Of a stretch of 64,000 nucleotides of DNA, positions 1 through 43,961 are shown piece after piece. Under the pieces are notes generated by a model. The model did no database searches and was not told where the DNA came from. It saw only the letters and a program-made list of their open reading frames with translations. Every line of letters starts with the position of its first letter. Position 1 is the stretch's first letter. Source of the DNA: Candidatus Bathyarchaeota archaeon. Its GTDB lineage: Archaea > Thermoproteota > Bathyarchaeia > Bathyarchaeales > Bathycorpusculaceae. The DNA lies in NCBI GenBank assembly GCA_963775685.1, contig CAVZJV010000014.1, forward strand, positions 2,240,001 through 2,304,000. Reading direction: 5' to 3'. Made by a program: the position numbers and the translations under genes.

Positions 1-73
1 TCCAAAGTTATTAAATCTTGCATCTGCCAGTTATTTGGTTGCTCGAAAAAGATGTCTATTGCAGGTGGTTTAC

Positions 74-1135
74 ATGAGGGTTATCTTCCATTTAGATATG
101 GATCACTTCTACACAGCGGTTGAGGAGCGGGAACGCCCCGAAATCAAAGGTAAACCCGTCATAGTTGGTGCTGATCCCAAAGAAGGCAAAGGCAGAGGCG
201 TCGTTAGTACAAGCAATTATGAAGCTAGAAAATCAGGCGTGCGCTCGGGAATGCCCATTTCTATAGCTTGGCGGCTTTGTCCAAGGGCGGTTTATTTGCT
301 CCCTAGCTTTCCATTGTACATTCAGGTTTCAAGCGAAATCATGGCGTTAGCTCGTAAGTACGCTGGGAAGTTTGAGCAGTGGGGGATTGATGAAGCTTTT
401 TTAGATGTCTCGGAAAAGGTTGGGACTTGGGCTGAGGCTGAGGTGTTGGCGCAGAGAATTAAGCAGGAGATTAAGGAGAAAGTGGGACTCACCGCCTCAA
501 TGGGCGTGGGACCCAACAAGCTCGTTGCTAAAGTTGCCAGCGACTTTCAGAAACCCGACGGCTTAACTATCGTTAAAGAAGAGGAAGTTGAAAAATTTCT
601 TGCTCCTCTTCCCGTTTGCAAGCTGCTTTGGGTGGGACGTAAAACTGAAGCAAAACTAAAAGAACTGGGTATAAACACCATTTGTGATCTGGCACACTAC
701 AATCCGCCAGCGTTGACTTCAATGTTTGGAGTGATGGGTTTGCAGATGCATCTGATGGCTAAGGGAATCGACAAAAGTGAAGTGGAAGAACGCATTGGCG
801 TAAAAAGTGTAAGCCATGAGACTACTTTTGAGGAAGACACCGCTGAATCAACCCTCATTTTTCAAGCTTTGGATGCGCTCTGCGAGGATGTTTTGAAGGA
901 AACCGTTGACCAGCACCTGCTGTTTAAAACGGTGACAATTAAGATTCGCTATCAGGGCTTTGAAACTCACACAAGAAGCAAAACCTTGCCGTTTTTAACT
1001 AACCGTCTCCATGACCTGCAAAAAACCGCTAACGAGTTACTTTTTGCTAATTTGCAGAAAGACCGTAAAGTCAGGTTGATTGGGGTGCGGGTTTCAAGTT
1101 TAGTTTCGGGCGAAAAACAGATGCGGCTCCTTTAG
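74..1135 (+). CDS. dinB: DNA polymerase IV (Y-family)
   Basis: Motifs HLDMDHFY, GRGVVSTSNYEAR, IDEAFLD, NKLVAKVASDFQKPDG and C-terminal VRLIGV; ATG at 74 follows GGTGG. Confidence 0.95.
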   Translation: MRVIFHLDMDHFYTAVEERERPEIKGKPVIVGADPKEGKGRGVVSTSNYEARKSGVRSGMPISIAWRLCPRAVYLLPSFPLYIQVSSEIMALARKYAGKFEQWGIDEAFLDVSEKVGTWAEAEVLAQRIKQEIKEKVGLTASMGVGPNKLVAKVASDFQKPDGLTIVKEEEVEKFLAPLPVCKLLWVGRKTEAKLKELGINTICDLAHYNPPALTSMFGVMGLQMHLMAKGIDKSEVEERIGVKSVSHETTFEEDTAESTLIFQALDALCEDVLKETVDQHLLFKTVTIKIRYQGFETHTRSKTLPFLTNRLHDLQKTANELLFANLQKDRKVRLIGVRVSSLVSGEKQMRLL

Positions 1136-24371: not shown

Positions 24372-25119
24372 TACGCGTTATTTCTTGGTAAATCAGTATG
24401 ACGACCCATAGCATTGACAGTGTAGCTATAAAGAAGATTGGGTAGAGAATGAGGTCTGAGATTTCAAGCGATGTCAGTCGTGCCAAATCGTAGAAAATAT
24501 AGATGATGAAAGTTAGGAATATGCCGAAACCAAGAGTTCTTTTCTTGCGAACCGCTATTAACAGCCCAACCGCAGCGATTGCGCCCTCTATGATTATTGC
24601 AATGTATTGCAGCGGTGATACAACATCCCCGAATGTTTGAACGTAGAGTCCTGACCCGACGAGCAAAACCTCTTCACCGCTTTGGACACCTTTGATGAAG
24701 GTTTGTTTGGTTGATGGCTCTGTTTCTCCAGGTTTAGGCCATTGGTAGTTTATCCAGCCTTCTCCTTTTCCACTCAAGGCGATATCTATAAACAGTTTCC
24801 CAATCGGTTTTCCTGTCACATCTACCAGTGTGCTCATGTTTTGGCCTTCTCCGGTCCTGTCGGGAGGATAAACAAGGCGGAGACCATCCATCTTCCAGAC
24901 AAAGATGTACGTGTCGTCTTGGAACCATTTGGTTCCGTTCTGTCTGAACTCAGAAAATGCAGCTTCACCTTTAACTGTGATAAGATTGGCGGCGTCTAAA
25001 ACAAGCGATTTGATTGCTTCTTTTCTGTTAGTCTGCTCAGTTTGATTAATGAGGCCTATTATTAAAAATACAGACAGAATCACAAGCAAGGCTGCAAATA
25101 CTACATGTTTCTTTTCCAT
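24361..25119 (-). CDS. Single Cache-domain membrane protein without signalling domain
   Basis: TM helix, YIFV..DVTGK..GEGWINYQWPKPG..K, three C-terminal TM helices. Confidence 0.85.
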   Translation of the reverse strand: MEKKHVVFAALLVILSVFLIIGLINQTEQTNRKEAIKSLVLDAANLITVKGEAAFSEFRQNGTKWFQDDTYIFVWKMDGLRLVYPPDRTGEGQNMSTLVDVTGKPIGKLFIDIALSGKGEGWINYQWPKPGETEPSTKQTFIKGVQSGEEVLLVGSGLYVQTFGDVVSPLQYIAIIIEGAIAAVGLLIAVRKKRTLGFGIFLTFIIYIFYDLARLTSLEISDLILYPIFFIATLSMLWVVILIYQEITRTAS

Positions 25120-25230
25120 TTTATATCGCTTACCTTTTTTGATTTGACAATTTAGTCAATCTCGCTTAATATTATCAACTTAATAGGTTTTTTCTGTATT
25201 TCATGTGTTAAAGGCGGGCGCGTTTATCCG

Positions 25231-25315
25231 TGGCAGGCGGGGATATCTATGAGACCTCGTTTGAACCTTCGGGTTAGCGCCTTTGATACGGCTAATAGAC
25301 TCGACCTCGCTTAGG
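25231..25315 (-). repeat. tRNA-Arg 3'-end remnant with structured T-arm insertion (type B)
   Basis: tggcaggcgggga-tatctatgagacctcg-tttgaaccttcg...ctcgacctcgcttagg; homologous to the copy at 36372. Confidence 0.75.
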
Positions 25316-25381
25316 TTCAGCGACCCACCACAAAAAATACCGAAACAAATGAGCCGCTTCAACGGGGTCTACCCTTTGTGT

Positions 25382-26281
25382 CTATCGGCAAAGTATCACA
25401 ATCAAGTATCCAAGAATAAGCAGATTGATTGTGAAAAGAGAAACAACGTTAATAGCACTGAACATCTGGGCGTTTTTTCCTTTACGTACTTGCAGTAAAC
25501 CTATGAGCCCTGCAACTAAGGGTATGCTTGAAAACGTTGTGATTACAAAAAGATTCACCTGTAAAATAGCTGGCTGCAAAGCAAAGTAAAGAAGCACCAA
25601 GAAAGCAATAAAGGCCGAGGAGAACGTTAAAGTAAAGACTGCCCCTACCCCTTTAGTTACACCCAAGGTTTTCTTATCGCCTAAACGATCGTCTTCTACA
25701 TCGGATGCTTCAAGACTCAGTGCAAGCATAAAACCGTAAAGTATGAAGGATACCACAAATAATCCGTACCAGTTATCTATGGCGCCTTTATTTGACAAAT
25801 AACCCGCGGCAGGAATCGCAAAGCCAAAAGCTAACGCTATTGCGAATTCCCCAAATCCCCTTGAAACCAGACGTAATGGTGGCGAAGAGTAGAACCCAAA
25901 AAATTGGCTCCAATCATTATCAACACCAACACCAAAGGGGCAATATTGAAAATAACCGCAAAAGACGAAATCAGAAGCGATATCACAAGAAGAACAACCG
26001 CTATTTTTAGCCAATGGCAGCATTTCTGGGTTGTCTGTCAGAACATTGTTGCTTGAAAACAACAGTTTCTTGTGTCTTGCTTTGTCTTGTTTAACATCGA
26101 AATAATCATTACTAAAATGGGTTGAAAGATCTCCAAAGAATACTGTTGCGTAGCAGACAACAAAATAGAGGGGGTTAAAAATTCCACCATTTGCTAATCC
26201 TAACAAAGCTCCTACTGCAAAAGCCAATAGACCTCCGACAACAATGTGGAGTCTTATGATCTTTAGGTACTGCTCGACCAC
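25382..26281 (-). CDS. UbiA/MenA-like prenyltransferase (compensating frameshifts ~25900-26010)
   Basis: NDYFD..D, FYSSPPLRL..RGFGE, DVEDD..KKTL. Confidence 0.85.
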   Translation of the reverse strand: MVEQYLKIIRLHIVVGGLLAFAVGALLGLANGGIFNPLYFVVCYATVFFGDLSTHFSNDYFDVKQDKARHKKLLFSSNNVLTDNPEMLPLAKNSGCSSCDIASDFVFCGYFQYCPFGVGVDNDWSQFFGFYSSPPLRLVSRGFGEFAIALAFGFAIPAAGYLSNKGAIDNWYGLFVVSFILYGFMLALSLEASDVEDDRLGDKKTLGVTKGVGAVFTLTFSSAFIAFLVLLYFALQPAILQVNLFVITTFSSIPLVAGLIGLLQVRKGKNAQMFSAINVVSLFTINLLILGYLIVILCR

Positions 26282-26360
26282 GACTAAACCTTCAGAGAGG
26301 TATTCTACTGTTTCTATGATAAAACAACTTATATGTAAATTAGTTTAATAAAAAAGTTAA

Positions 26361-27272
26361 GTGAAAAGAACATTGATGAAAGTTAAAAAGTATATGGATC
26401 TGCTGCGTCTGCACTTCTTTTTTGTTTGGCCAACGCTATTCTGTGCGGGATTGTTTTTAAGTTTCATTTTCTATGGCAGCTTTTCCTTAATTACAGTTTT
26501 GAAAGCCGTTTTAATTGGGTTTCTGGGTTTTGAAGCTGGACTTGTACTCAATGATATAGTAGATGCAAACATCGATAAAAGAGAGTTACCATCTGATGAC
26601 AAATTAACCAAGTATTGGCGGCCATTCGGAAACCGACCTATCTCCCAAGCCTTGATTTCACGTAATCATGCTGTCGTAATTTTTGTTGTTTTTGTTGCGT
26701 TGACGTCGGCAGTTATTCTCTCTCTTCCTTATCCTCATTCGTTGTGTGTCTTTGTTATTATGATTACGTGCTATTGCTTGGAGGCGTTCTATCAGCTTAA
26801 AAAGCGACACGAAAGTTTTCCAGTTGCACAAGTAATTGGAAGAATGGATTTTGCCCTGTTTCTTGTTGCAGGATACCTCATTATCGGTCAACCGGATTTG
26901 AATGCGCTTTTTCTTTTTCTCTTCTTCTATCCTCTCGCACTTGCGCATTTGGGTGTAAATGATTTGATAGATGTATCAAACGATGTTGCTAAAGAAATGA
27001 AAACAATAGCGACACTTTACGGGTTAAATTTTACCGCTTTTTGGGTACTTTCGCTCAGCATATGGCATTTTGTAATGGCTATTGTGTTTTTAACTATGCT
27101 TGGGACGATTTTGTCTATTGCAGGGTTTGCAGTAAGCTTGACTATTTTAGCTGTTGGAAATTTCAGGATAATGAGAAAAAAGAACTCTGAGTCGGCTCTC
27201 AGTGCTTTGCCGCTCTTTCATATAGCTATGCTATTTTATGCAATAACAATAATTCTAGACTTCTTCATTTAG
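26361..27272 (+). CDS. UbiA-family prenyltransferase
   Basis: NDIVDANID, RPI, NDLIDVSND..MKT; multiple TM helices. Confidence 0.85.
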   Translation: MKRTLMKVKKYMDLLRLHFFFVWPTLFCAGLFLSFIFYGSFSLITVLKAVLIGFLGFEAGLVLNDIVDANIDKRELPSDDKLTKYWRPFGNRPISQALISRNHAVVIFVVFVALTSAVILSLPYPHSLCVFVIMITCYCLEAFYQLKKRHESFPVAQVIGRMDFALFLVAGYLIIGQPDLNALFLFLFFYPLALAHLGVNDLIDVSNDVAKEMKTIATLYGLNFTAFWVLSLSIWHFVMAIVFLTMLGTILSIAGFAVSLTILAVGNFRIMRKKNSESALSALPLFHIAMLFYAITIILDFFI

Positions 27273-27411
27273 TACTATCTTGTGCTTTTTGTTTAGGTTT
27301 AAAATGGGGACAAGCTGATTCTTCAGGGTTTAGATTAGTGAAATGAAAGAACTTGCAGGTTCCATAATCACAGTTGCTGCAGTCTCCATGTTTATGCTTG
27401 TAGAAATCCAT
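27265..27411 (-). CDS. Small Cys-rich protein
   Basis: CSNC..C...ACPHF; start codon uncertain. Confidence 0.5.
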   Translation of the reverse strand: MDFYKHKHGDCSNCDYGTCKFFHFTNLNPEESACPHFKPKQKAQDSTK

Positions 27412-27609
27412 TCGTGGGATTCCACTTCGAAGTTGCCGAAGAGCATTTCCTAGCACACTGATCAGCCTTGGAGTAACTATGCCCCTTAAGTAACAATTTA
27501 ATTTTTCTGAGTTATTAAACAAAAATCAGGGTCTACACGAATCAAACTCAAAGGAAAATTTTGCCTGTGATTTCTTCATTGTGGGGGATTGTCTTGCCGA
27601 TTTCTGTTG

Positions 27610-28379
27610 TCAGTAGCTTGACTTTTCGATCTCAAAACTAGCAACATATTCCAGATTCTTGGGTGGCTTCTTATCTTTTGAACTGTCGAAGACGAATTTA
27701 GTTTTCCAACTATTGTATTCTGCAGCAACATGTAAATGGCAAAGGGCAATACCCATGTTGATCGGATAGTGGCTCCCGCCTACAATTGTTCTAAGGAAGT
27801 TAGACTTGTGGAGGAATAGGCTTGAATTGCATTCATGTTGCCGGTAAAATACCAGTTTTGTAAGTTTACAGCTGATGGAGCAAGACGCGCTGGCTCTAAA
27901 ATTTCATCGGTGCCCTGTGTGTTTGTTATTTCCGTAATAGATTTTCTTTTGAACTCTGAAGTACTGTTCCTGTATACTGGTTCCTTTGAATTTCCAAACG
28001 ACATCAAAATAATGAATTTGAGATTTGAAGCGTTTGTTAAGTCTTTGGTTGGTTGAGGAATACCCAACCAGCAACTGCCTAAACCGGAAGCTGAAAAATA
28101 AAGGTCCATTTGCTGAAGCATAAAACCAATGTTGACTTTGTAGGCGTCCTTGGCTTCGGAGAATGCTGCGATAAAGTGGGGCGCTTTATTCCCAAGTTTT
28201 CTGGTTACCTGGTTGGGCGAAATAATTTTGAACTCAGTCTTTATCCCTGATAACAAAGGCTGTAATGACTGCAAATTTGTTGAAATCTCTTCGAGAAGAT
28301 TTGAGTCAATCGGCGCGGAGTCATAATCCCTGATTGGTTTTCTTTTAAAAATTGCTTCGTAAAGACCATTCTTATCCAT
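27610..28379 (-). CDS. Nitroreductase-family (two-domain) protein, frameshift at ~27810
   Basis: AIFKRK.IRDY, GLGSCWLG, RLAPSAVNLQ; continues as NMGIALCHL in another frame. Confidence 0.85.
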
Positions 28380-28688
28380 TTTCTTGCAGATCCAACGAAA
28401 TTCTTATTATTACTTCTGACCTCAGACCTTAAAACTTACTGTGTGAGATATAGACGCATAAATCCGATTAAGAGACGAAATCGAAAATTTGGTAACCGAG
28501 TATTACACCACCCGCAGACATTGGCAACAACAAGCTGTTCTATGTTGGCTGGTGTTGAATTGTTCGTTTGCACCCTAATAACTGCTGTAGAATCTGAAGG
28601 TTCAAACGCTCATTGGAATAATAATGACAATAGTGGTTGAAGTCAAAGAATAGCATTCTTTTGGGTTTGAATTGATAAAATTGGCTTC

Positions 28689-28748
28689 TGGCGGGCGAGG
28701 AGGGATTTGATCCTGCGCCCTAAAAGGGATATCACCCGCAAATCCTCT
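28689..28748 (-). repeat. tRNA-Arg 3'-end remnant with 31-nt T-loop insertion (type A)
   Basis: tggcgggcgaggagggatttga followed by tcctgcgccctaaaagggatatcacccgcaaatcctc; homologous to the copy at 39189. Confidence 0.8.
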
Positions 28749-28886
28749 TTTTTTCCAACATTTTGATTACTGTTTAGTTTCACAATCGACGTATTCGAAA
28801 AGCTATATCTAAAACAACTCAGAACTTTTGAACAAACGACAAGTTCAGGTTAAAATAATATTTAAATAGATTTTAACAGGCAAGTT

Positions 28887-30821
28887 ATGATAAAGGCGCT
28901 AACTATGGAATTTGAATTAATTCTAGTTGCATTGGCTTCATCGTTAATAGTAGTAGACATAACCTTGCCATTAATGTCCAAGGCAATTTTCAAGCGGCTG
29001 AGCAAATACACAGTTGCTCTAAGTTCACTTGCTTTTGTCCTTATACTATGGTCTTACATTCAGCTACTCTTCGCTTTCGTTAGCAACGATTTTTCTTACT
29101 CGAGCGTCTACTTTTTTTGTTCCTCAAGCCTGCCGTTACTATCGAAAATTTATGCGAGTTGGGCCGGGGCAGGAGGCTCAATGCTACTACTATCCATAAT
29201 CCTTAGCCTTATCTACTTTGGTTCAAAATTAGCAGCCTATAAAAAGCCTGAAAGGTTCCAAATCGTTTCCAGCCAGATCTTAGGCTTTGTTGTTCTGATA
29301 TTTCTTAGTGTTACTCTGTTAAGAAATCCATTTGAACGTTTGCCTGCCGCTATGGTGGAAGGTTTAGGGCTCAATCCCCAACTTCAAAGCTTCTGGATGG
29401 CAATCCACCCGCCGATTGTTTTTTCGGCTTACGCTTTTGTTGTCTTAACGTTTGCCTTGACTCTTGCCAGCTTACGCACTAACCAAGAGTTAGAAAAAAA
29501 CATTGTTTTCAAAATCTCCATTTATGCATCGTGGATTCTGCTAACCATCGGAATAACTTTAGGAGGCGTTTGGGCGTACGCGGTTTTAGGCTGGGGCGGA
29601 TACTGGGCATGGGACCCAGTGGAAACCGCTTCCCTCTTGCCTTGGCTTATACTTACCGCTTACTTCCTAACCCGAAGCCTATCAAAGCTCAAAAAAAGCT
29701 TAACCCAAGAATCAATGATTATGATGACTTTTGCCAGTCTCGTTTTCCTCAGCGCCTTAACCCGCGGCGGTTTAACACCATCAGTCCACTCCTACGCTAC
29801 CTCAGCAATTGGTCCAATCATGCTTTCTTTCGCCGTCGCCATGATGGGGTTTTTCTTTTTCTTTGCTAAGGGCAAAAAGAAGCCTTTCTTTAAACTCGAA
29901 GTTGATCGCGCCTCGCTGATTTCTCGGTCGACATTTGTTGCCTTTTGGGCGTTAATCCTCATTTCAATCGTTTGCCTCGCGGGGTTGGCTTTCAAAGATT
30001 TCCCTTACAGCCTCTTCACCTACCCCTTTGTGTTGTTGTTCATCATTTCGCTTGTTGGATTTAGTTTAGATGATAAAATCCATTATGCCCGCCAGCTTTT
30101 AATCGTAGTTTTTTCTTTAGTCGCGGGTGGTGTGCTCACAGCGGTCGGGGTTTTTCCGGTGAATGTTCTGCTCACTCTGACTGTCCCCATGTTTGCCGTA
30201 GTGTTTGTTTTGCTGCTTTACCAGCTTATCAAGTCTGCAAGAAGGAAAACGTTGCTTTGGCAGCGCCTCTTTGGCTTAGCTGTTGTTGTAATGTTGCTGG
30301 GCGTGTTTATCAGTGCAGGCGCAAAAACCTCCACAACCCTAAACGACCTAAAACCCAATGTTCCCACAGAAGCTCTGGATACAACAGTTGAAGTAAGTAA
30401 CCTTAACATCGTCAACGCAACCTCCGAAGTTTACAACACCCAAGCCGGAAACGTTCTGCCGCAGTACTCTGCTGTCACTGCAGATATAACCATCCGCCAA
30501 GCAGATGCAACATATAGCGGCGAAGTTTCAGCGAGTTTCTACCCCAACTACGGCTTAGCCCTGACACCGCTAATAGTCAACACCCCCTCAGGCGACATTT
30601 ATGTGCACATGGAAATCGATGAAGAACTCTATAGCATATTGTCTGCTCAGCTTACTGGCAACAGCACCACCCCCGCCGCCGTAACATTAACTGTTCAGCA
30701 TGTCCCTATGGTTTACCTCGTTTGGGCGGGCGTCACGTTGATGGTTGTTTCAATGGCTGCGGAATGCTTCATTGACCTGCATCGAACAAGGCAGCAACAA
30801 AAATTGGTCATCCGAAGCTGA
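28887..30821 (+). CDS. ccmF: Cytochrome c maturation heme lyase CcmF
   Basis: WAGAGGS, GLNPQLQ..MAIHPP, WGGYWAWDPVETAS, SVHSY. Confidence 0.9.
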   Translation: MIKALTMEFELILVALASSLIVVDITLPLMSKAIFKRLSKYTVALSSLAFVLILWSYIQLLFAFVSNDFSYSSVYFFCSSSLPLLSKIYASWAGAGGSMLLLSIILSLIYFGSKLAAYKKPERFQIVSSQILGFVVLIFLSVTLLRNPFERLPAAMVEGLGLNPQLQSFWMAIHPPIVFSAYAFVVLTFALTLASLRTNQELEKNIVFKISIYASWILLTIGITLGGVWAYAVLGWGGYWAWDPVETASLLPWLILTAYFLTRSLSKLKKSLTQESMIMMTFASLVFLSALTRGGLTPSVHSYATSAIGPIMLSFAVAMMGFFFFFAKGKKKPFFKLEVDRASLISRSTFVAFWALILISIVCLAGLAFKDFPYSLFTYPFVLLFIISLVGFSLDDKIHYARQLLIVVFSLVAGGVLTAVGVFPVNVLLTLTVPMFAVVFVLLLYQLIKSARRKTLLWQRLFGLAVVVMLLGVFISAGAKTSTTLNDLKPNVPTEALDTTVEVSNLNIVNATSEVYNTQAGNVLPQYSAVTADITIRQADATYSGEVSASFYPNYGLALTPLIVNTPSGDIYVHMEIDEELYSILSAQLTGNSTTPAAVTLTVQHVPMVYLVWAGVTLMVVSMAAECFIDLHRTRQQQKLVIRS

Positions 30822-31248
30822 TGTGCAGGATATAGTATAAAGTGCCTAACCCTAAAGAGAGAAGCCAAAGCGCAAGGATTTTCCACATAAGCTTCTTTCG
30901 GGGGGCGCAGAACTTGGTGCTGCTAGACTCGTTTATGGCCCAAACCCAAAGAAGCCAAACGCCCAAAACCACCGCAAATGCTCCAATGATGCCGTGGATG
31001 ACACCTGATAAAGCTACAAAGTAAAAGTCAGCTAAAGTTTCAGCGGCCGCGGATACAAACGAGGGTCCCATATGCGAAATTAAGAGTAAAACGGTGATTA
31101 ACATGACTACCATCATGGCGTTTCCATGCCAAACCCATTTGCGCTTCTTTTCCAGGTATAGACTTAAACCGATTATGCCCAGCGCAGCCACAAATATGAC
31201 GATGTTTGCCTGTGCCATCCATTCATGAACTACCTCGAAGGTAACCAT
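30808..31248 (-). CDS. DUF420-like four-TM His-containing membrane protein
   Basis: WHGNAM and IHGIIG motifs; lies within the oxidase cluster. Confidence 0.6.
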   Translation of the reverse strand: MVTFEVVHEWMAQANIVIFVAALGIIGLSLYLEKKRKWVWHGNAMMVVMLITVLLLISHMGPSFVSAAAETLADFYFVALSGVIHGIIGAFAVVLGVWLLWVWAINESSSTKFCAPRKKLMWKILALWLLSLGLGTLYYILHISFG

Positions 31249-31385
31249 ATACTCTCTCCAAAGTTTAGTTATAGTCTTTATGTTAAAAAATTTTCATAAA
31301 TTTAAAATAACCTGGATTATATAAAATTAGAAACCTTAATAAAGACTGGGTTTGAGACCTTAAGTGGCAGTAAGGGGTTTGTTTT

Positions 31386-32826
31386 ATGGCGGCAGAGCAA
31401 GAAGCTGTTAAAGCGGATGCTGAAGATTCTACTCCAGTTGATTTAAAATCAGCTGATTCAGTGGCAAAATACTGGTGGTATGGGGCGCTGTTGTGGTTCC
31501 CGATTTTCACCACCTTCGGAATGATTATGGCTATAAAATTTTTCTACCCAACTTTCCTGATTGACTCCGCCTGGGACACATTTGGACGTATAAGACCCGC
31601 CCACGTCAACGGATTACTATTCGGCTTTTTATCTTCGGGCTTAATCGGCTCAATGTATTATATAACCCCTCGGCTCAGCCACAAATCACTCTTCCAACCC
31701 CTAATCGCTAAAGCTTCCGCAGTTTTATGGAACGTAGCCGTTTTAGCAGGTGTACTTCTCATTCTAAGCGGCGACACCCAAGCACGTGAATACGCTGAAA
31801 TGCCTTGGGTCGTAGATATTGCAATTGTAATAACTTTGATTTTAATTGGGATAACAATTATAGGTACAATAATCAAACGCAGAGAACGAAAACTCTACGT
31901 AAGCCTCTGGTTCTTCGCTGCCATTTTCCTCTGGTTCCCCATAGTTTATTCCATAGGAAACGTAATTTGGAACCCGCCTTCGGGAGCACTTTACGGTTTA
32001 ACCGATGCCATCGTAAACTGGTTCTACGGACACAACGTTTTAGGCCTTTGGTTCACGCCTTTTGGGTTAGCTCTTTGGTACTACTTTATTCCCAAAATCT
32101 CCAAACGCGCCCTGTACAGTGTCACCCTATCTCTAATCAGCTTCTTCGCCTTAGCCTTTTTCTACACCGGCGTCGGCGGACACCACCTTCTCCAATCCTC
32201 CATCCCTGAATGGCTCAAAACAATCGCCGTCGCCACCAGCGGACTCATGATGATCTCCGTTTTAACCTTCGCCACAAACATCGGCATGACCCTCAGAGGT
32301 GCATGGAAAGAAATCATGAGCAACGTGCCGTTGCGCTTCATAGTTTTCGGCTTCATATGCTATATATTCGTCTCGATACAGGGCACCTTCCAAGCCCTCA
32401 GAGACATGAACATATACCTTCACTACTCACAGTGGACAGTCATGCACTCTCACCTTGCCCTGTACGCTTCCTTCGGAGTGACAATAATGGGCATAATGTT
32501 CTGGGCAATTCCCAGAGTCACCCAAAAACAACTCTGGAGCAAAAAACTAATGGACGTGACTTGGTGGGTTACACTTTTGGGATTCGTGATTTTCATGTTG
32601 GGCATGATGCTAGGCAGGGCTAGTTGCCAACGCCAACTGGTTCACTCATCAAACAATAGCTCAAGCACTTCCAACTCTAGAACCATACTTCATAGTCCGA
32701 GCTATCGGCGGAGGCATAGTGGTTGTTTCCGCTTTCCTCTTCGCCATCAACATCATCATGACCGTAATTTCAAAACACCGGGCATCCGCTGTCCCGATGG
32801 ATGAAGACAAAATCGAGGTACCTTAG
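31386..32826 (+). CDS. ccoN: cbb3-type (C-family) heme-copper oxidase subunit I; frameshift at ~32615
   Basis: FGRIRPAHVN, EYAEMPW, WFYGHN, FYTGVGGHH, WTVMHSH; C-terminus PYFIVRAIGG in a shifted frame. Confidence 0.9.
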
Positions 32827-32828
32827 CC

Positions 32829-34418
32829 ATGACCGCGACAGAAAAGAAACTTGAAGAGCAACTGGAAAAAGTTGAGAAAACCGTCAATTACCAAATGCGA
32901 AAAGCGAAGAAGAAAATTGTTATCAGAAACCTATTTCCAATCGTAGCCGGCGGCGTAGCAGTCTTTCTGCTCATGGTAAGTATGGTTGTAGTTGCTCCAT
33001 ACATGTTCCTCCTTGATGTTCCCCCCTCCGACACAGCCCACACCTACACAACCCAAGAACAGGAAGGCAGAACGCTATTCATGAATTTAGGCTGCTTCTA
33101 CTGCCACTCCCAACAGGTTCGTGCCGCCGACTGGGGTTTGGGTAACGTTTCGCAGGAAGGCGATTACGTATACGATAGTCCCAACGCTTTAGGCACCGAA
33201 CGTACGGGCCCCGATCTGGCTCAGATTGGGGGGATGCGACCTACAATTTGGCATCACCTGCACGACCGAGATCCCAGAAGCGTAAGCCCCGGCTCAATCA
33301 TGCCCAACTTTGTTTTCCTAAGTGACGCGCAAATCGACGCCTTAACCGCTTACATCCAGAATTTGGGTCAAGAAAACCTCCAAGTTGAATCCTCAATCAC
33401 CAACGGCTCTGCATATCACCCTGTGGTTCCGGAAAACTATCTTAACGCCTCAAACCAATATGGGCCCCTTTACTTTGATGTCTTGGCACAGTACGACGCA
33501 GACAACGACGTCTACAATGGACCAGCTTCGCTTGGAGACCAATGGGCTGCGATATACGACGTCGCCAAAGCCGACTACACCGCACGTTGCCTGCCATGCC
33601 ATGGATGCTCTGGAAACGCTCAGGGACCATACGCCCGCCATGTGGTTACTCAACCGGCAAACCTCCATGAACGAATAGCCACCTTTCCCGGCGACAACTA
33701 TCATATCTGGCGCGTGACTGAAGGAGTGCCTGGAACAGCTATGCCTGCATGGGGGCTAAGTCTCAATGATACGCAAATTCAGATGATTGCCGTTTACGAG
33801 ATGAGTTTCGTTTTTGGCTCCGCAAGAACCTTCGACGGAGCACTCTCTGATGCTGAAGGAGACGCTTTTGCTCAGTCAACGCTTAATTCACCTCCGATTG
33901 CTGGCACGCAGCAGGAATTTCAGAATGGCAATGACCTCTTTAACTTGTATTGTGCCCAATGCCACGGTGTCGATGGACAAGGAGACGGATCCGCCTCTGG
34001 CAAAGTCGCAGGTGGATACATAGTGCCTGTTCCAGCTAACTTTACTGAGTCAGGAAGTGACTTTCAAATGTATGGTAGATACGTCTGGAAAGTCAAAGAA
34101 GGCGTAGAAACAACTAACATGCCGCCTTGGAAAAATGCTTTAACAGACAACGAAATCTACCAGCTTGTATTCTACATACAAAGCTTCGCAACACCACAAG
34201 ACTACAACGCCAAATGGGGACCCCAATATAGCGACCCCTACGCAAGAAACCTGAAAATCAACCAAGCCAGCATAGGTGCCGACCCAGCTGCCGCCCTGAC
34301 ATTGTTAGCCGCCATCGTGCTTTGGGACAAAAAGTTTAACGGACAAAAACTTCGCTTCCAAAATGGGCGACATAAAAAATTAGTAGATTTAATCAGTTTT
34401 GGGAGGATTAAGCTTTGA
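32829..34418 (+). CDS. ccoO: CcoO fused to two extra cytochrome c domains (triheme)
   Basis: GCFYCHSQQVR, GTERTGPDL, PGSIMP; additional CLPCH...AMPAW and CAQCH...NMPPW. Confidence 0.9.
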   Translation: MTATEKKLEEQLEKVEKTVNYQMRKAKKKIVIRNLFPIVAGGVAVFLLMVSMVVVAPYMFLLDVPPSDTAHTYTTQEQEGRTLFMNLGCFYCHSQQVRAADWGLGNVSQEGDYVYDSPNALGTERTGPDLAQIGGMRPTIWHHLHDRDPRSVSPGSIMPNFVFLSDAQIDALTAYIQNLGQENLQVESSITNGSAYHPVVPENYLNASNQYGPLYFDVLAQYDADNDVYNGPASLGDQWAAIYDVAKADYTARCLPCHGCSGNAQGPYARHVVTQPANLHERIATFPGDNYHIWRVTEGVPGTAMPAWGLSLNDTQIQMIAVYEMSFVFGSARTFDGALSDAEGDAFAQSTLNSPPIAGTQQEFQNGNDLFNLYCAQCHGVDGQGDGSASGKVAGGYIVPVPANFTESGSDFQMYGRYVWKVKEGVETTNMPPWKNALTDNEIYQLVFYIQSFATPQDYNAKWGPQYSDPYARNLKINQASIGADPAAALTLLAAIVLWDKKFNGQKLRFQNGRHKKLVDLISFGRIKL

Positions 34419-34567
34419 ATTTCGACATGCTAATCTACACCATCGGTGCGCTAATTATAACTCTAATCACCGCGGGCTTCGTAGTTTGGGCTTTTAAAAC
34501 TAAGCAATTCGAGTCAAACGATTTTCTCCGTTACTACCCTCTTGAGGAGGATGAAAACCAACAATGA
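34415..34567 (+). CDS. ccoS: cbb3 oxidase assembly protein CcoS (50 aa, not in the ORF track)
   Basis: MNFDMLIYTIGALIITLITAGFVVWAFKTKQFE...PLEED; GGAGG SD; overlaps both neighbours. Confidence 0.8.
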   Translation: MNFDMLIYTIGALIITLITAGFVVWAFKTKQFESNDFLRYYPLEEDENQQ

Positions 34568-34848
34568 GCTATCTACCAACCGCAAAAATCGTAGAGTTAG
34601 CCCCCTACGACATTTATTTAGCCCTGTTTCTAATAGCAGCGGTAATAATCGCCATTGTGTTGATTGTCAGAAGTTCAGATGAATACTCTGTTGAGAAAAC
34701 CGAGAAAAACTCTGAAGAATTCGCAGGTGAAATACGGGACTCTCAGGGGCCAGTTACAAAATGGTTGTGGGTTGTCTATATTGTTCTGATTATTTGGGCT
34801 GTTGCTTATTTGGCTCAGCACTGGAGCGAGTTCGCTTTTTTCCCATAA
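34564..34848 (+). CDS. Small membrane protein resembling the CcoP N-terminal TM region
   Basis: EEFAGEIRDSQGPVTKWLWVVYIVLIIWAVAYL resembles the CcoP/FixP N-terminal motif. Confidence 0.6.
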   Translation: MSYLPTAKIVELAPYDIYLALFLIAAVIIAIVLIVRSSDEYSVEKTEKNSEEFAGEIRDSQGPVTKWLWVVYIVLIIWAVAYLAQHWSEFAFFP

Positions 34849-35196
34849 TTTTTAACTTCATAATTATTTTTGGTTTTTCTTTTTGCAATAAGAACGGGGT
34901 CCTTAGAATACAAGGCGATTTTCTCGCTCTTGCTTCGTATGTCAAAATTTTAGCCCGGTTACCAATAATTATTAAATCAAACTTCTTTCTTTAGTCAGAT
35001 TCAATATAGCAGATATAGGAAAAAAGATGTAGATGTGAGTAATACCTCAAAACTAACCATCTGCTTATAGGACGTAAAAGAAGCCTGTCTTAGCTGAAAA
35101 GTACATTTACAGCATATAATCTTTAGTTAGTGGCTTTTCTAAAAATTCAAATACGCAAACAACACTAAATTTATAGTCAATCGGCGGTATGAATAG

Positions 35197-35439
35197 ATGA
35201 AGTTCTTAAAAGATAATTTCAACAAATTGCTTAAGCAATTTAAAGCATTAAGCGTTGAGAAATTGGAAATAGAAAATGAGATTCTCAAGTTGTATGAGTC
35301 TTCAACTACTGACAACGTTGTAACAATAACTTCTGATAAATTAAAGAAAATAGAAGCCTTGAGGGAAAGATTGAAAATCGTAAGCAAAGAGATGAAGAAA
35401 ACAGATAAGAAGATTTTTAAATTATTCAAAGACAAATAG
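35197..35439 (+). CDS. Small coiled-coil hypothetical protein (AT-rich block)
   Basis: K/E/L-rich 80-aa ORF. Confidence 0.4.
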   Translation: MKFLKDNFNKLLKQFKALSVEKLEIENEILKLYESSTTDNVVTITSDKLKKIEALRERLKIVSKEMKKTDKKIFKLFKDK

Positions 35440-35647
35440 CTATTATTAATGTGTTTGTACTTTTTTCTGGGATGTTTATTGGTTCCAAATATACTTACAA
35501 AATAATTTTAAGTAGAAAAAGTTAGTGTCATAAGCATCAGTGTTTAGTGTATTAATTAATTTTAAAGTTTGTTATTAACATAACCGTAGGTGTATTTACT
35601 ATGTTTATTGTATCTGCCTTAAATAGGGTAATTAACATATATAGAGT

Positions 35648-35956
35648 GTGAATCACATGGTAGATTCGAATAACTCCAAAAAGAAGTTAGTAGTTAAAGC
35701 TACGCCAGTAGAGGAAGTTCCAGAGGGCAAAAAGATAGCTAGAAGACCAGAGTATGATGAAGTATTCAAAAAGATTATGGAAAACCCCGAGAAGATTTTC
35801 AAGATTGAGGTGGAGGGCAGAACTGTAAAAACGTTGTATGCTCCATTTGCTTCTAGAGTAAAAAGATACAATAAACAATCTGAAAGAAAATTCAATGCAC
35901 AGCTTAAAGTAAGAAGCAAAGAAATCTACATTGTCAAAGTAGACAAGTCAAACTAG
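35648..35956 (+). CDS. Small basic hypothetical protein (AT-rich block)
   Basis: Lys-rich 102-aa ORF with GTGA-type SD. Confidence 0.55.
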   Translation: MNHMVDSNNSKKKLVVKATPVEEVPEGKKIARRPEYDEVFKKIMENPEKIFKIEVEGRTVKTLYAPFASRVKRYNKQSERKFNAQLKVRSKEIYIVKVDKSN

Positions 35957-36371
35957 GATACAGCAGGACATTCTTTTGTTCAGTATTTTCTTTCTGATTA
36001 ATCTTAAAAGGTTTTTTTACGCTCCCTGAAATTGTTTTAATGGTCTTTAAATCTGAAATTGACCAGTCTGGGTCCCAAACTTTAAAGAAGAAATTAGAAT
36101 GAAAATCAAAGGTTATAGATTTCCATGTTGAGGTATGTGGAGATAATAAAGTTGTTTGTAGCATCCAAGTTTTTCTTTAGAAAGAGTGGGGAGGTATATT
36201 ATGCTATAGCTAGGCATTATGGAGCCGATAAGAAGTTCTACTATCATCAACAAAGCGTTGAATATACCAATAGAAAACTTATAGCGCTAGGTATTATTGA
36301 CCCTTGTCAAGCATTTAATAATAAATCCCTTGCTCAGACTGTAATAGAATCAGGTTCTAAAATAGATACAA

Positions 36372-36444
36372 TGGCGGGCGGGGATAGCTATGAGCCCTCG
36401 TTTGAACCCTCGGGTCGTAATGGCAGTAGAGACTGCACACAGCT
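36372..36444 (-). repeat. tRNA-Arg 3'-end remnant with structured T-arm insertion (type B)
   Basis: tggcgggcgggga-tagctatgagccctcg-tttgaaccctcg. Confidence 0.75.
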
Positions 36445-36543
36445 TTTGGTTGAAGTGGCAAAATAGAAATAGCTTTGGAGCTAGCGTTCGCCCAAATATC
36501 GGGCGCAGTAGAGATAGACTTATACTAAAAAACTATCGCAAAC

Positions 36544-38940
36544 TCATTTGTAGGTCAATTTACCGTTTAGCTCCTTGGGGGGGGGCAAACGAACTGTGAA
36601 AGTGGTGCCTTTGCCTTCTTGGCTCGTGAAGGAAACGGTGCCACCCGAGGATTCTGTCATCCTTTTAACAACCGGCAAACCAAAGCCTTGACCTTTGGAC
36701 TTTGTTGTAAACATGAGCGTAAACATTTTATCCTGAATTTCCCGCGGAATTCCAACGCCCGTATCCCTAACCGATAAAACGGTGTCGTCAACTTCTTTAT
36801 GTGCATCTATCGTTAACTTGCCTCCGTCAGGCATTGCCTGAACAGCATTAGTAACTAAGTTAAACAAGATTCGGTTCAAGTAGTATGAGTCAGCTTTAAT
36901 CCTTCTTGCTTCATCTGCTATTTTTACCTTAACCGTAATATTTTTGGGCAAACCGTTTTTTGCAATGAATGCTTCAACGATGGACTTCAAATCGCTTTCT
37001 TCAATCTTTGGGTTAAGAGGTCGAGCATAATCCTGAAGGTCCTGAACAATTTTGTTAATGTAATCGATATTTTTCTCGATTTCATCCATACTCTCCAAGG
37101 CATTCTTCTTCTCTTCACTATCGGGTATGGAAGCTAACTCTGTTTTAGCTAAGAACACATCGCTGGTTATGGCTTGCAATGGGTTTCGAATATCATGCCC
37201 CACCATACCTGCAGTAGCGCCGATAGCGGCCAAACGCTCTGAATCTTTGAGCTTATTTGCTCTCTGTTCTGCAAGCTCCTCCAATTGACTGGAGTATTCC
37301 TCAAGTTCTACAGCATTTTCTTCAAGCTTTCTTTGGGTATTCTCTAATTCCTCTGTTTTGTGTTTCAGATCCAATTCAGCTGTCTTACGCTCAGTAATAT
37401 CTACTGATAAAATAAAAATGCCTTCAGGAACAGGTGTTATCCTTAGGTCATACCATCCAGAGGTTTTGTCGGGAAAAACGAAAAAGTTCTCCATTTCTTG
37501 AGGAATTCTCTCCTCCATACAGCACTTCAATTTGACAAAGCCTTCGGTGAATTCAACGCCTGGCCACATTTCCATATACCGATTTCCCAATAGTTCTTTG
37601 TTTGATTTGCGGTTCTGAATTTCAGCCGCCTTATTGATGTAAATATACCGCCAATCATGACCAATTATTTGACCGCCTTCAATCATGCTGTCTAATGTGC
37701 TGTGGAACCGCGCTTCACTTTCTCTTAATGCTTCTTCGGCTTTCTTGCGCGCTGTTATGTCCTCAAAAATTGAGACAAAATAGCCCTTTCTTGGACAGTA
37801 TGCTGAAACCGAGTACCATCGGTCTAGTTGTGCAGCGTAATTCTCGAAAATCAAGGGTTGACCTGTAATCGCGACCTTCCCATACACTCCTATCCAGTCA
37901 GCAGGGTCTTTCTCTATTCCAGGCAAGATTTCCGTTACTCTTTTTCCAATGACATCTTTTCGTTCTATTCCAGTCATTTTCTCGAATGCATCATTGACGG
38001 CGATGTAGACGTAGTCTACCGGTTGCCCTTCTTTGACCAAGATTTTATGGTAAGAAAAGCCGTCGAACATACTTGAAAACAAGTTTTCCAGCTGTCGACT
38101 GTCATTGCGGAACGCCTCAGCCCAATTAGATGAAACCCCTAGTTCAGAACTTGAATATAAACTAGCTCGGGGGCGAGCCATCAAGATAGCCACCAAGAAA
38201 TAGACGCCTGCGAGCCAATACGACACTCTGGTAGCCCAGTTATATGGGCCGTTGGGTGTTTTGTAAGTTGCCAAGCCTACAAGAGATATTGCGAGAAGTG
38301 CCAATGCCAACGCATACCAGAAAACAACTTTAGATTTTGAAAGCCTGTATTGCCAACTTAGAAGGATACTGCTAACTGCGCTCAATGCTCCAGCTCCAAC
38401 GATAATCCTTTGCCGAATAGCAGTGGGACCTGATACTGCAAAAAATGTGGGTGCGAAACCGCCAAGAACTAGAACAGCTGATATAATAACAAGCGCTGTA
38501 ACTGCAACATAGCCTAAGAATAAGAGATGTTTGCGACGGCTTTGCGAGCTAGGGACAGCACCGGCCACGATTAGTACAGCGCTCAATAGCTGAAAACCGC
38601 CAGAAAAGAGAAAGCCAAGGTTGAAGAGGGCTACATTATCATTTACGGATATTGAAGCTGCAAACCCTGCGACTGAAGCTAACACTCCTCCCACTGCAGT
38701 TGCCATTCCTAAAAACAGCAAACTCAAGTCTCCTTCAGAATGGTAACTCCATGCAGAGAGGATAGCGACAATTAGACCTGAAACCGTCAAGAACAGAGTG
38801 TTAAGTGCGAACAGGAGGTTGGGTGATGGATAAACCGTCACCTCACCTATGTTAAGCAGTGCCATTATCAGGTAGAGAACCACGAGACCGATTGGTGGGA
38901 TTAATGCCACTTTTTGTAAAGATAGCTTGAGCGGTCCCAT
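36544..38940 (-). CDS. Membrane sensor histidine kinase with two PAS domains
   Basis: About 8 TM helices, two PAS domains, HDIRNPL, NLVTNAVQAM, DTGVG, GQGFGL. Confidence 0.95.
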   Translation of the reverse strand: MGPLKLSLQKVALIPPIGLVVLYLIMALLNIGEVTVYPSPNLLFALNTLFLTVSGLIVAILSAWSYHSEGDLSLLFLGMATAVGGVLASVAGFAASISVNDNVALFNLGFLFSGGFQLLSAVLIVAGAVPSSQSRRKHLLFLGYVAVTALVIISAVLVLGGFAPTFFAVSGPTAIRQRIIVGAGALSAVSSILLSWQYRLSKSKVVFWYALALALLAISLVGLATYKTPNGPYNWATRVSYWLAGVYFLVAILMARPRASLYSSSELGVSSNWAEAFRNDSRQLENLFSSMFDGFSYHKILVKEGQPVDYVYIAVNDAFEKMTGIERKDVIGKRVTEILPGIEKDPADWIGVYGKVAITGQPLIFENYAAQLDRWYSVSAYCPRKGYFVSIFEDITARKKAEEALRESEARFHSTLDSMIEGGQIIGHDWRYIYINKAAEIQNRKSNKELLGNRYMEMWPGVEFTEGFVKLKCCMEERIPQEMENFFVFPDKTSGWYDLRITPVPEGIFILSVDITERKTAELDLKHKTEELENTQRKLEENAVELEEYSSQLEELAEQRANKLKDSERLAAIGATAGMVGHDIRNPLQAITSDVFLAKTELASIPDSEEKKNALESMDEIEKNIDYINKIVQDLQDYARPLNPKIEESDLKSIVEAFIAKNGLPKNITVKVKIADEARRIKADSYYLNRILFNLVTNAVQAMPDGGKLTIDAHKEVDDTVLSVRDTGVGIPREIQDKMFTLMFTTKSKGQGFGLPVVKRMTESSGGTVSFTSQEGKGTTFTVRLPPPKELNGKLTYK

Positions 38941-39188
38941 TTTATTATTAATCCTTCGTTTTAACTACATATAACTTTCGCGAAAGATTAAAACAAAGTC
39001 TAGTGCACTTGCTCATTAATCTTGGAAGAGCATGAACTCAACTTGAAAGCTCCGATAGTTTCACTAACACTGGGTAATTTTGCATGCTAACCCCGAGCGT
39101 TCAAACGCTAAATTGAAATATAAGCACTAAAATGAGTTAAAAAAGCAGTTCTTCTTATAGAAATCATTTATTTGCCAAAATAAGCTCT

Positions 39189-39246
39189 TGGCGGGCGGGG
39201 AGAGATTTGGTCCTGCGCCCTAAAAGGTATTTCACTCGCAAACCCC
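39189..39246 (-). repeat. tRNA-Arg 3'-end remnant with 31-nt T-loop insertion (type A)
   Basis: tggcgggcggggagagatttgg-tcctgcgccctaaaaggtatttcactcgcaaacccc. Confidence 0.8.
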
Positions 39247-39267
39247 TTTTTTTATTTGCTTTTTTTC

Positions 39268-39304
39268 TTTTCTCCTATTTCGGTTCCGGAGCCTCAGCAA
39301 ACCC
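39268..39304 (+). repeat. Direct repeat, left copy
   Basis: ttttctcctatttcggttccggagcctcagcaaaccc, repeated at ~42292-42328. Confidence 0.9.
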
Positions 39305-39496
39305 ACATCAAACAGAAAAATAATAAGTACCATTTCCACCGCATAAAAAACTTTTTGCCACCTCAACTGATTAGGTTTTTTCGCTTTTTGTCGTCAGTGC
39401 CAACTTGTCACTTAGTTTATATACTATATTCTCGTAAAGTCAATAAAGTTGACTAAAACAAATCTCAAAACAATTTGTTTGGGTCAATTAAAATAA

Positions 39497-42163: not shown

Positions 42164-42220
42164 AAAATCTCAAACAAAAACAAACTTTCTCCTTTTTTAG
42201 TTTTTTTTGGAAAATCAATT

Positions 42221-42328
42221 GAGGCTGAGTAAGCTCTGAATAAATCTAACTATTGAAGCTGCAATCAAAAAGAGGTTTATGCATTTTCCTCTTTTCTCCT
42301 ATTTCGGTTCCGGAGCCTCAGCAAACCC
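42221..42328 (+). repeat. ~110-nt structured inverted-repeat element
   Basis: GCTGAG-TAA-GCTCTG...CGGAGC-CTCAGC arms with inner AAAAGAGG/CCTCTTTT hairpin; homolog at 60192-60291. Confidence 0.75.
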
Positions 42329-42397
42329 TGATTTTCTCTTAATTCGCTGCGGTAGAGGTTTGCCCACAGTGTACGCTGTATCATTTTTGTGCAGAAA

Positions 42398-42592
42398 CTT
42401 TCCGGGAAATTTTCAGGCGCGCCCATACGTTCGAGCCAAGCGGGTCCATGGATTTAACATTTTCTGCCTAATTGGATTTTCGAGGAACGTATTTCAGATT
42501 TTTCTAACGGTAGCTACACGTCCGTTCGGCATGTCCGTCATTTGCAACTCTATCGTACCGCCTGGGGGGAGAGGTTCAGAAATTCAGCTATT
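42398..42592. repeat. Degenerate ~190-bp direct repeat, copy 1
   Basis: Shares tttaacattt(t)ctgcctaa.tggattttt and cgcctggg...ttca.aaattca.ctatt with 43129-43318. Confidence 0.7.
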
Positions 42593-42670
42593 TAATGGAC
42601 TGTTTCAGTTTTGTTTCAGGTAATTTATATAAGTAAATATTAGTATATTATAATGTGGTGATGAAAGAAA

Positions 42671-42988
42671 ATGTCAACTGCAAAAATCGCAATTGTCCTC
42701 GCCGCAATAGCCACAATAACACTCGCAATCCTTGGAATCGCAGCAGCATCGCAGATAGCTCAAAATCAAATCTACTCTAGCACACAGGCAGCCCCAAACA
42801 ACGTAGCACCAAACCAAGGTTTCTGGGGATGGTTAGGCAACTGCTTTGGTTTTTGGGCAAATCAAACACCTAACAACCAATACATAGTTCCGCCAGTCTC
42901 CGCAACCAACACTACAGCACCTGCACCTTACCAACCATATCAAGGCGGCTACGGATACGGCTATGGACCCTGCTGGGCAGGCTGGTAA
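42671..42988 (+). CDS. Small secreted protein with Gly/Tyr-rich Cys-containing tail
   Basis: Signal peptide, GFWGWLGNCFG, GYGYGYGPCW; GGTGA SD. Confidence 0.75.
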   Translation: MSTAKIAIVLAAIATITLAILGIAAASQIAQNQIYSSTQAAPNNVAPNQGFWGWLGNCFGFWANQTPNNQYIVPPVSATNTTAPAPYQPYQGGYGYGYGPCWAGW

Positions 42989-43128
42989 ACAATAAGTCCT
43001 GCTCAGACAATAGTCCTTTGTTTTCTAAAGTTTTTTTAATAACCCTAAGTTATACGCGGCAATCTCCTTTAACGATATTAGTTAAAGCTCTGTATTCATT
43101 GATTGGTCGTGAGGACTTTTAACCCAAT

Positions 43129-43318
43129 ATTTTCCAAAAATTTTTAACGCCCGTGCTTGCAACCCTACCTTTTGCACGGGTTTAACATTTCTGCCTAAGT
43201 GGATTTTTGTTAGAATGTCTTTTAGGCTTTTCTGACTTTGGCTGTGCGTTCGTTTCCTTCGGTGTCCATGGTCCATTCGAGGGTGTCGCCTGGGTGTAAA
43301 TTCAAAAATTCAACTATT
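43129..43318. repeat. Degenerate ~190-bp direct repeat, copy 2
   Basis: Alignable by eye to 42398-42592. Confidence 0.7.
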
Positions 43319-43484
43319 CCCTCAGGTACTGTAGCTCTCAGCGACTTCGATTTGGGTCGGGCTATCGATGTTTTTGATTGAAGTGGCATGTGTATTTTAT
43401 GGTTTAGGCGCTATTTATTTATACCTATGTGTTGGCAGAAGAGTTTATATATAGTTTCGCACATTTTACGATATGTGAACCAAA

Positions 43485-43758
43485 ATGGCAACACAAATCT
43501 TGACCCCAAAACAACGGAGCGAAAAGATAGCCTCCGAAGACATCGTTCAAATCAATCCCCGAGTTTTCGTCAAATCCCAAACAAGCCACGCGGCTATTCA
43601 GTGACGTGGGTCGGCAAAGTTGGAGCTGCGACTGCCCAGATCACCGGTATCGCCAGCTGAAGTTCAAACATATCCACGCCGTTGAGTCCCAATTTGCGCA
43701 GGTTCCATCTAAACCGACATGGCCATATCCCCTGGGGCTTTGGGAGGCACAGAAATGA
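43485..43758 (+). pseudogene. SWIM zinc-finger protein, frameshifted
   Basis: VKSQT..YSV..WSCDCPDHRYRQLKFKHIHAV across frames. Confidence 0.6.
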
Positions 43759-43937: not shown

Positions 43938-43961
43938 AGCAGTTGTTTATGGAGGCGCCGG

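Follow-up and report, generated by a model that had tools for sequence, protein, structure and literature searches.

The tRNA-Arg(CCT) locus and its array of units

The DNA analysed here is a 64-kb stretch (the window) of contig CAVZJV010000014.1 from a Candidatus Bathyarchaeota archaeon; the window's own genome is designated G000, and the other G-numbers denote genomes of the same Bathyarchaeia genus. At 45008-45140(-) the window holds a tRNA-Arg(CCT) gene, behind which four units of 5.8, 2.8, 7.7 and 3.5 kb are stacked, each closed by a partial copy of the tRNA 3' end. Two of these copies, B1 and B2, are the "type B tRNA remnants" of the original prediction; the other two, A1 and A2, are A-type blocks of the same array. 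It is proposed that B1 and B2 are probably attR-type right-end attachment (att) sites of integrase-less cargo cassettes stacked at the 3' end of tRNA-Arg(CCT). As scars of recombination they are largely of a familiar type; they are not folded RNA or DNA structures.

The tRNA gene was recognised by eye and with ARAGORN on deletion variants. Its D-loop carries an insert of about 52-62 nt: deletion of a single segment restored an Arg(cct) call in 299 of the 5661 variants of 45008-45140, the deleted piece being mostly 52-62 nt long. In uncut form the gene is undetected by ARAGORN and Rfam and is unannotated, and neither search (Rfam at its gathering score) gave a match anywhere in the window. The 5' exon lies at 45119-45140(-). 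This gene is the integration target (attB/attL). Five tRNA 3'-end copies occur on the same strand of the window, namely the gene itself, A2 (39189), B2 (36372), A1 (28689) and B1 (25231), and the four partial ones all lie downstream of the intact gene in its orientation, as att junctions do. A search of the whole genome for the 13-nt core TCCCCGCCCGCCA with at most one mismatch returned these five sites only, plus one unrelated match; the core is otherwise confined to the array, and no free attP was found in G000.

Unit 1 (39189-45007(-), 5.8 kb), whose cargo includes an 888-aa Ig-like secreted protein, ends in the A2 block (39189-39253(-)), an A-type right-end attachment site that terminates in TCCCCGCCCGCCA. 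Unit 2 (36372-39188(-), 2.8 kb) is a B-type cassette with one histidine-kinase gene (36544-38940). It carries an inverted motif, CCCGAG(C/G)GTTCAAACG, at 39092-39107(+), 81 nt inside its left end; its right-end module (36416-36530(-)), which contains the upstream stems of the original prediction and is about 80% conserved within one cassette subfamily, is followed by the 44-nt B2 block (36372-36415(-)), composed of ACCCGAGGGTTCAAA, a 16-mer and TCCCCGCCCGCCA. Unit 3 (28689-36371(-), 7.7 kb) holds a cbb3-type oxidase/cytochrome c cluster and ends in the A1 block (28689-28753(-)), again an A-type right-end attachment site, with one core mismatch. Unit 4 (25231-28688(-), 3.5 kb) is a B-type cassette with two UbiA prenyltransferases and a nitroreductase. 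Its inverted motif (TCTGAAGGTTCAAACG) lies at 28593-28608(+), 80 nt inside the left end, and its right end is the 44-nt B1 block (25231-25274(-)), the most diverged copy; both ends of the unit have a common variant base, GAAGG. Beyond B1 follow a tRNA-trailer-like flank (CGGATAAAC...) and then chromosomal genes. Cargo was assigned by Pfam, in units 1, 3 and 4 together with open reading frames (ORFs).

The D-loop insert of tRNA-Arg(CCT) (45008-45140) is missed by standard tools, as it is at the loci L070, L074, L068 and L066 of relatives. In three relatives (G097, G068 and G093) it holds fragments of tRNA-Arg itself, and G105 has, in its place, 345 nt plus a repeated 22-nt 5' exon ahead of an insert-less tRNA. 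Some relatives have an integrase gene that begins within the insert or directly adjoins the 5' exon. The insert looks like the scar of an element integration, along the lines of the model outlined by Sugahara et al. 2012 (PMC3293823), and the locus offers material on how mobile elements disrupt archaeal tRNA genes. When run on G000, with or without its intron option, ARAGORN reported no Tyr, Leu(TAA/CAA), Ser(GGA/CGA), Glu(CTC), Lys(CTT) or Arg(CCT) tRNA; this genome probably conceals several more tRNA genes that have non-canonical inserts, for example near C14:2216197.

The cbb3-type oxidase/cytochrome c cluster of unit 3 (28728-34875) has a 91% paralogue at G000:C14:1461409-1467563, and in G014 it has a copy at 93%. 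A tRNA-like remnant, derived from another tRNA, closes the paralogue, which indicates that the respiratory cluster itself travels on such units. The ORF of oxidase subunit I (31386-32804(+)) ends in low-complexity sequence, and long ORFs in other frames overlap it (31805-32209 and 32210-32623); a frameshift or an assembly error may lie near its 3' end.

Composition and distribution of the B block

Each B copy consists of CCCGA(G/A)GGTTCAAA, then the 16-mer, then TCCCCGCC(C/T)GCCA. Comparison with tRNA-Arg(CCT) at 45008-45140(-) bears out the observation with which the original prediction started, that on the minus strand of both copies a 16-nt segment occupies the position of the T-stem TCCC. 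The 16-mers, at 25244-25259(-) and 36385-36400(-), gave two matches against 0.04 expected, and they are embedded in a 44-nt direct repeat (25231-25274 and 36372-36415) that is 91% identical. The first part of the block is a copy of the tRNA T-stem and T-loop (CCCGAGGGTTCAAA) and the third is the 13-nt core of the tRNA 3' end. As for the 16-mer between them, its first 12 nt (CGAGGGCTCATA, in some copies CGAGGGCTCAAA) match the preceding 12-mer CGAGGGTTCAAA at 9-11 of 12 positions in 28 of 28 sites, an agreement that counts as one family-level observation because most positions of the 12-mer are fixed by the search pattern. B1 is decayed, its duplicated 12-mer matching at 8 of 12 positions and its core carrying one mismatch. 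The simplest interpretation of the 16-mer is that the T-arm motif CGAGGGTTCAAA (12 nt) was duplicated in tandem and that four nucleotides, TCCC, changed to GCTA or CCTA. The duplication and the change together would account for the whole segment, making a foreign insertion unnecessary, and the change removes the 3' strand of the T-stem and so destroys that stem.

A coding reading of the block was also considered: the net insertion of 12 nt preserves the reading frame, and the block has no stop codon in the RGFK...PAR frame. Its interpretation as the N-terminus of a split integrase, comparable to the attR of G016 described below, was rejected because the open frames upstream range from 2 to 110 aa, with no conserved start or peptide.

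The opposite end of the units adds a further element. An inverted 14-mer copy of the motif lies 80-82 nt inside that end in six of 12 B units, a seventh having it with three mismatches; the two B units of the window both carry it. One subfamily, which includes B2, has common end modules of about 160 nt on the right and about 140 nt on the left at about 80% identity. In one subfamily, the B block and the inverted motif of the next unit make the junction an imperfect palindrome of 145 nt, which a 14-16-bp stem closes. Folded as single-stranded DNA (ssDNA), the unit junctions of this subfamily in G012 reach z -4.3 to -5.3, with none of 200 shuffles as good. This junction inverted repeat is the sole feature that resembles folded DNA, and it sits elsewhere than the stems of the original prediction.

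Of the 120 genomes of the genus, 19 contain the B block, at 28 sites in all, and a reversed-pattern control gave no match; the A-type block is present in seven of the 120. Species-representative genomes yielded 11 exact B-block matches, all titled as metagenome-assembled genomes of Bathyarchaeota or Bathyarchaeia, and further blocks lie on 16 metagenome contigs and on one IMG/VR contig, the latter having no PF00589 match. The block is nearly invariant from ACCCGAG to GCCA except for one variable triplet. The 31 nt that move with the unit (motif and 16-mer) are nearly invariant across 45 sites, and the sequence upstream is unalignable, falling 5' of the block into at least 10 unalignable classes.

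Each reconstructed array has its B blocks on the downstream side of tRNA-Arg(CCT) and oriented as that gene is, every block closing the right end of a cargo unit that has no integrase. B-ended units behind the tRNA number three in G012, three in G019, two in G117 and one each in G111 and G091. Their cargo serves sensing, transport and metabolism; in G012, G019 and G117 the units hold 44 ORFs, which encode transporters, kinases, enzymes and one DDE transposase. This transposase, in unit 2 of G117, is the one mobility gene among the 70 ORFs scanned from units, and no integrase or other site-specific recombinase was found among them.

Individual units recur in different positions. The histidine-kinase unit of the window (unit 2) matches the second unit of G012 with 95.8% identity over 2636 nt and 97.5% over 197 nt. 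It is preceded there by a B block (A2 in the window) and followed by different DNA, and the homology between the two genomes starts within the core on the left and ends exactly at ...GCCA on the right. An ABC-transporter unit is the third in G012 and the first in G117, with 97.5% identity over 3572 nt. Occupancy of the locus differs among relatives while its flanks stay conserved: the dCache and citrate-synthase genes beyond B1 lie 19.9-20.8 kb from the tRNA here and 2.3-12 kb from it in G056, G061, G058, G060 and G121. Since shared units appear in new contexts and their boundaries fall at the core, the units are discrete, exchangeable insertions bounded by the 13-nt core. The expectation that the remnants are recombination sites instead of products of passive decay is thereby upheld, the 44-nt block being conserved at the ends of unrelated cargo and the unit boundaries mapping onto it.

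Recombinases, proposed movement and alternative explanations

Elements with integrases of their own occupy the same tRNA gene in the genus. In G128, the tRNA is followed by an integrase at +47..838, by an A block at +23.8 kb and then by the native tRNA trailer and flank; in G121, a 2.2-kb A-type unit retains only a 61-aa integrase remnant. The autonomous elements of G128 and G016 and the G121 remnant thus identify the A-type remnants of the window as the ends of ordinary elements minus the integrase. In G016, the integrase gene is split across the att site (SSV-type), its N-terminal piece ending in ...RGFKSLPAR before attR and its C-terminal piece opening inside the tRNA. Seven genomes have an integrase of this family immediately behind the tRNA: G016, G110 (broken), G007, G053, G093, G128 and G048. 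A fragment resembling a tyrosine-integrase C-terminus, 44% identical to the integrase of G016 across 70 aa, lies in the window at about 55437-55637(-), some 10 kb upstream of the tRNA and outside the array.

We propose that a cassette excises as a circle and that a tyrosine recombinase would then re-insert it by exchanging strands within the 13-nt core, the target being the tRNA or a core copy already present. The two direct copies of the 12-mer, joined in about half of the units by the inverted copy, would act as putative arm-type protein-binding sites. The recombinase would be supplied in trans by autonomous tRNA-Arg-specific elements of the genus, candidate suppliers including the integrase-bearing A-type element and the SSV-type element with the split integrase gene. 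The B-type units most likely hitch-hike on the integrases of these autonomous elements. As boundary marks of mobile cargo units, the remnants account for a variable 20-kb island, carrying the cbb3-type oxidase cluster, the histidine kinase and the prenyltransferases, in this uncultured soil/peat archaeon. If movement in trans does take place, Bathyarchaeia have a simple site-specific route for swapping adaptive operons, and the 44-nt block would be a practical metagenome marker for such islands.

Several points weigh against this proposal. No recombinase is tied to the B block: a scan of 15 of the 19 B-site genomes (the window array included) for PF00589 between the tRNA and the B site gave no match, and in these 15 no B-ended unit had its own integrase or even an integrase remnant. 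Circular or empty-site junctions were not encountered; six DNA sequencing runs contained only 5-9% of the sampled words. In G074, an integrase lies 18 kb past the B site and could be inside an array. Half of the B units are without the inverted motif, which makes the role of that motif uncertain. The 16-mer pairs slightly better with its cognate upstream 60 nt than with non-cognate ones (-11.07 against -10.42 kcal/mol, permutation p = 0.027), a small effect over 27 distinct sites among which B1 ranked 26th. Finally, the sharing of cassettes could also stem from homologous recombination between att repeats after transfer of a whole array.

A tyrosine integrase family of a different kind adjoins the 5' exon of tRNA-Arg(CCT) in divergent orientation in 11 of the 120 genus genomes (eight intact and three broken; for example L066:12089-13159(+)); it is not in the window's genome at E<=1e-20. 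Its open frame runs antisense through the 5' exon, and extra 5'-exon copies lie 1-9 kb upstream in G068, G097 and G069. These integrases are a second integration system at tRNA-Arg(CCT). As candidate cassette recombinases they were rejected, because they accompany the 5'-exon repeats upstream of the tRNA and not the B sites; they stand beside the tRNA in three of 19 B-site genomes (two of them broken) against eight of 101 others, which lends that role no support.

A small Zn-ribbon-like ORF at 36125-36370(+), directly after B2 and thus in unit 3, has a conserved ARHY...YHQQS motif and no Pfam or PHROG family. It adjoins att ends in either orientation (also in G091, G111, G105, G117 and G093), and its frame continues into the att site; the protein may be an accessory recombination protein. 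That this ORF and the 5'-side integrase form one gene running antisense through the tRNA was rejected, as their frames do not join across an insert-less tRNA.

A more ambitious explanation takes the tRNA-Arg(CCT) locus for a dedicated integron-like gene-capture platform built from tRNA parts, in which the tRNA 3' end offers the fixed site of insertion, cassettes bring their own site in the form of the B module (two direct and one inverted copies of the T-arm 12-mer around the 13-nt core), and a trans-acting recombinase shuffles single-operon cassettes between genomes. We consider such a specialised platform rather unlikely; its cassettes would carry genes for sensing, transport and respiration.

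One option of the original prediction was an attC-like folded single-stranded recombination site; its hairpin would be recognised by an integron-type integrase, and the array would be integron-like. The arrays of integrase-less cargo units with a conserved site at one end of each, the junction palindrome of one subfamily and the GAAGG base common to both ends of unit 4 agree with this idea, which we nevertheless regard as improbable, since the predicted stems fold no better than shuffled sequences. B1 and B2, each with 30 nt of upstream sequence, were compared with dinucleotide shuffles: they folded no better than these either as RNA (z +0.32 for B2 and +0.77 for B1) or as DNA (z +0.28 and +0.43), so the hairpin expected of attC was not found. 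The complementary strings that had suggested pairing with upstream sequence do exist and are used in the RNA minimum-energy fold of B2, but they do not exceed chance, and the fold of B1 is without the long-range stem. B1 and B2 can be aligned within the 44-nt block only; the supposed G-C to T-A compensatory change sets non-homologous upstream sequences side by side and is therefore not covariation.

The larger alignments point the same way. In 11 homologues of B2, none of the seven pairs of the long-range stem has a compensatory (two-sided) change, an earlier set of seven homologues agrees, and the three central pairs are broken in five, seven and ten of the 11; the homologues thus do not keep this stem. 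When 40 distinct 46-mers, taken from 45 sites, are folded as an alignment, the energy is -5.3 kcal/mol with a covariation term of about zero. A structure kept while its sequence diverges is not what these data describe. The second, enclosed hairpin fares somewhat better: in the B2 subfamily two of its four pairs are changed on both sides and 75% of cells are paired, which gives a local hairpin modest support in that one subfamily.

Known attC sites end in motifs of the RYYYAAC/GTTRRRY type. No such ends are visible in the B block, as compared by eye with the general form of the motif and not by a scan with a dedicated tool. The inverted motif is present in just six or seven of 12 B units, and the unit boundary lies inside the junction palindrome rather than at its outer edge. 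No PF00589 match occurs in or beside the window array, a search made without a dedicated IntI model, and the units contain from one to about 15 genes. The B block therefore has neither a conserved multi-stem fold nor the hallmarks of attC.

Inert decay would make the units integrase-bearing elements that lost their integrases, and the B block a functionless sequence that is similar through recent common descent. Post-integration loss of the integrase is reported for archaeal elements (PMC8371274), the 61-aa remnant in the A-type unit of G121 would be a case of it, and B1 is visibly decayed. There is little likelihood in this account, since the 31 travelling nucleotides are nearly invariant across 45 sites while all upstream sequence is unalignable, integrase-less units recur at 96-97.5% identity in different contexts of different genomes, and no B unit in the 15 of 19 B-site genomes scanned was seen with even an integrase remnant.

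A functional RNA, be it the tRNA-tailed non-coding RNA that the original prediction also offered, a tRNA gene with an intron or a split tRNA's 3' half, is very improbable: although the block has an acceptor-like end (...GCCCGCCA) whose GGGC...GCCC could form a 4-bp acceptor-like stem, and non-canonical tRNA inserts are real in G000, where tRNA-Arg has one and ARAGORN misses several expected isoacceptors, brute-force single deletions gave no tRNA call in 27,686 variants of B1 and 27,559 of B2 against 299 for tRNA-Arg(CCT), the CCCTC of the T-stem 3' strand is absent from the B block, Rfam 15 has no match over B1 or B2 even at E<=10 (24500-40000 searched), the upstream sequence is unconserved between sites, without covariation, and none of the sequencing runs listed is recorded as RNA. 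The same deletions gave no tRNA call at the A sites, so an intron-containing or split tRNA was rejected there as well, and a Glutamine-II match of Rfam at 36482-36537(+), with 19.5 bits against a gathering score of 33, was taken as chance. A transposon with terminal inverted repeats or a miniature inverted-repeat element was likewise rejected: the inverted motif is set back from the unit ends by 27 nt and 80-82 nt and occurs in six or seven of 12 units only, and the units are flanked throughout by one repeat, the 13-nt tRNA core, not by a variable target-site duplication.

Relation to known systems

Our preferred reading of B1 and B2 as right-end sites of integrase-less cassettes places them closest to archaeal tRNA-targeting elements of the SSV and pNOB8 types, whose inserted DNA is flanked on both sides by direct repeats of the 3' part of the tRNA. 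Both types occur at tRNA-Arg(CCT) in this genus, the first with its split integrase in G016 and the second with an intact integrase beside attL in G128. Tandem integration at one locus and loss of the integrase gene have been described for archaeal elements (PMC8371274). Unlike such elements, the B units are without an integrase and yet keep a conserved 44-nt end; their att site is not a plain tRNA copy and has a 12-nt tandem duplication of the T-arm, and about half of them add the inverted motif at a fixed distance of 80-82 nt. Among the titles and abstract openings found on tRNA-integrated integrases of Bathyarchaeota and on archaeal integrative elements, none describes the B-cassette family.

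The tycheposons of Prochlorococcus are cargo elements stacked at tRNA genes with partial tRNAs between them (10.1101/2020.12.28.424599). As in the window, newcomers displace older elements further inward, the island contains decayed remnants and additional partial tRNAs, and the cargo is niche-adaptive. Tycheposons differ in being bacterial and in having been identified by their own integrases, whereas the B units are archaeal and integrase-less and have a duplicated and inverted T-arm motif.

Integrons have been reported in archaea (10.1101/2022.02.06.479319). The B units resemble integron cassettes as recombinase-less cargo arrays with a recombination site at one end, stacked at a fixed chromosomal site. 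They differ from them in that no integron integrase is adjacent, the site is tRNA-derived, the boundary falls in a 13-nt core common with the tRNA, fold and covariation give the B block no support, and the units are often multi-gene.

Bacterial cis-mobilizable elements and mobilizable genomic islands are att-flanked and integrase-less and use the integrase of a relative. The movement proposed here, of integrase-less units bounded by att sites and accreted in tandem with autonomous elements at a common target site, would be of the same kind, with the differences that those elements are described in bacteria and that the link between integrase and B block is putative here. What sets tRNA-Arg(CCT) apart is the conserved tRNA-derived end module with its duplicated and inverted T-arm motif, the freedom from recombinase genes of all B units seen and the host group in which they occur.

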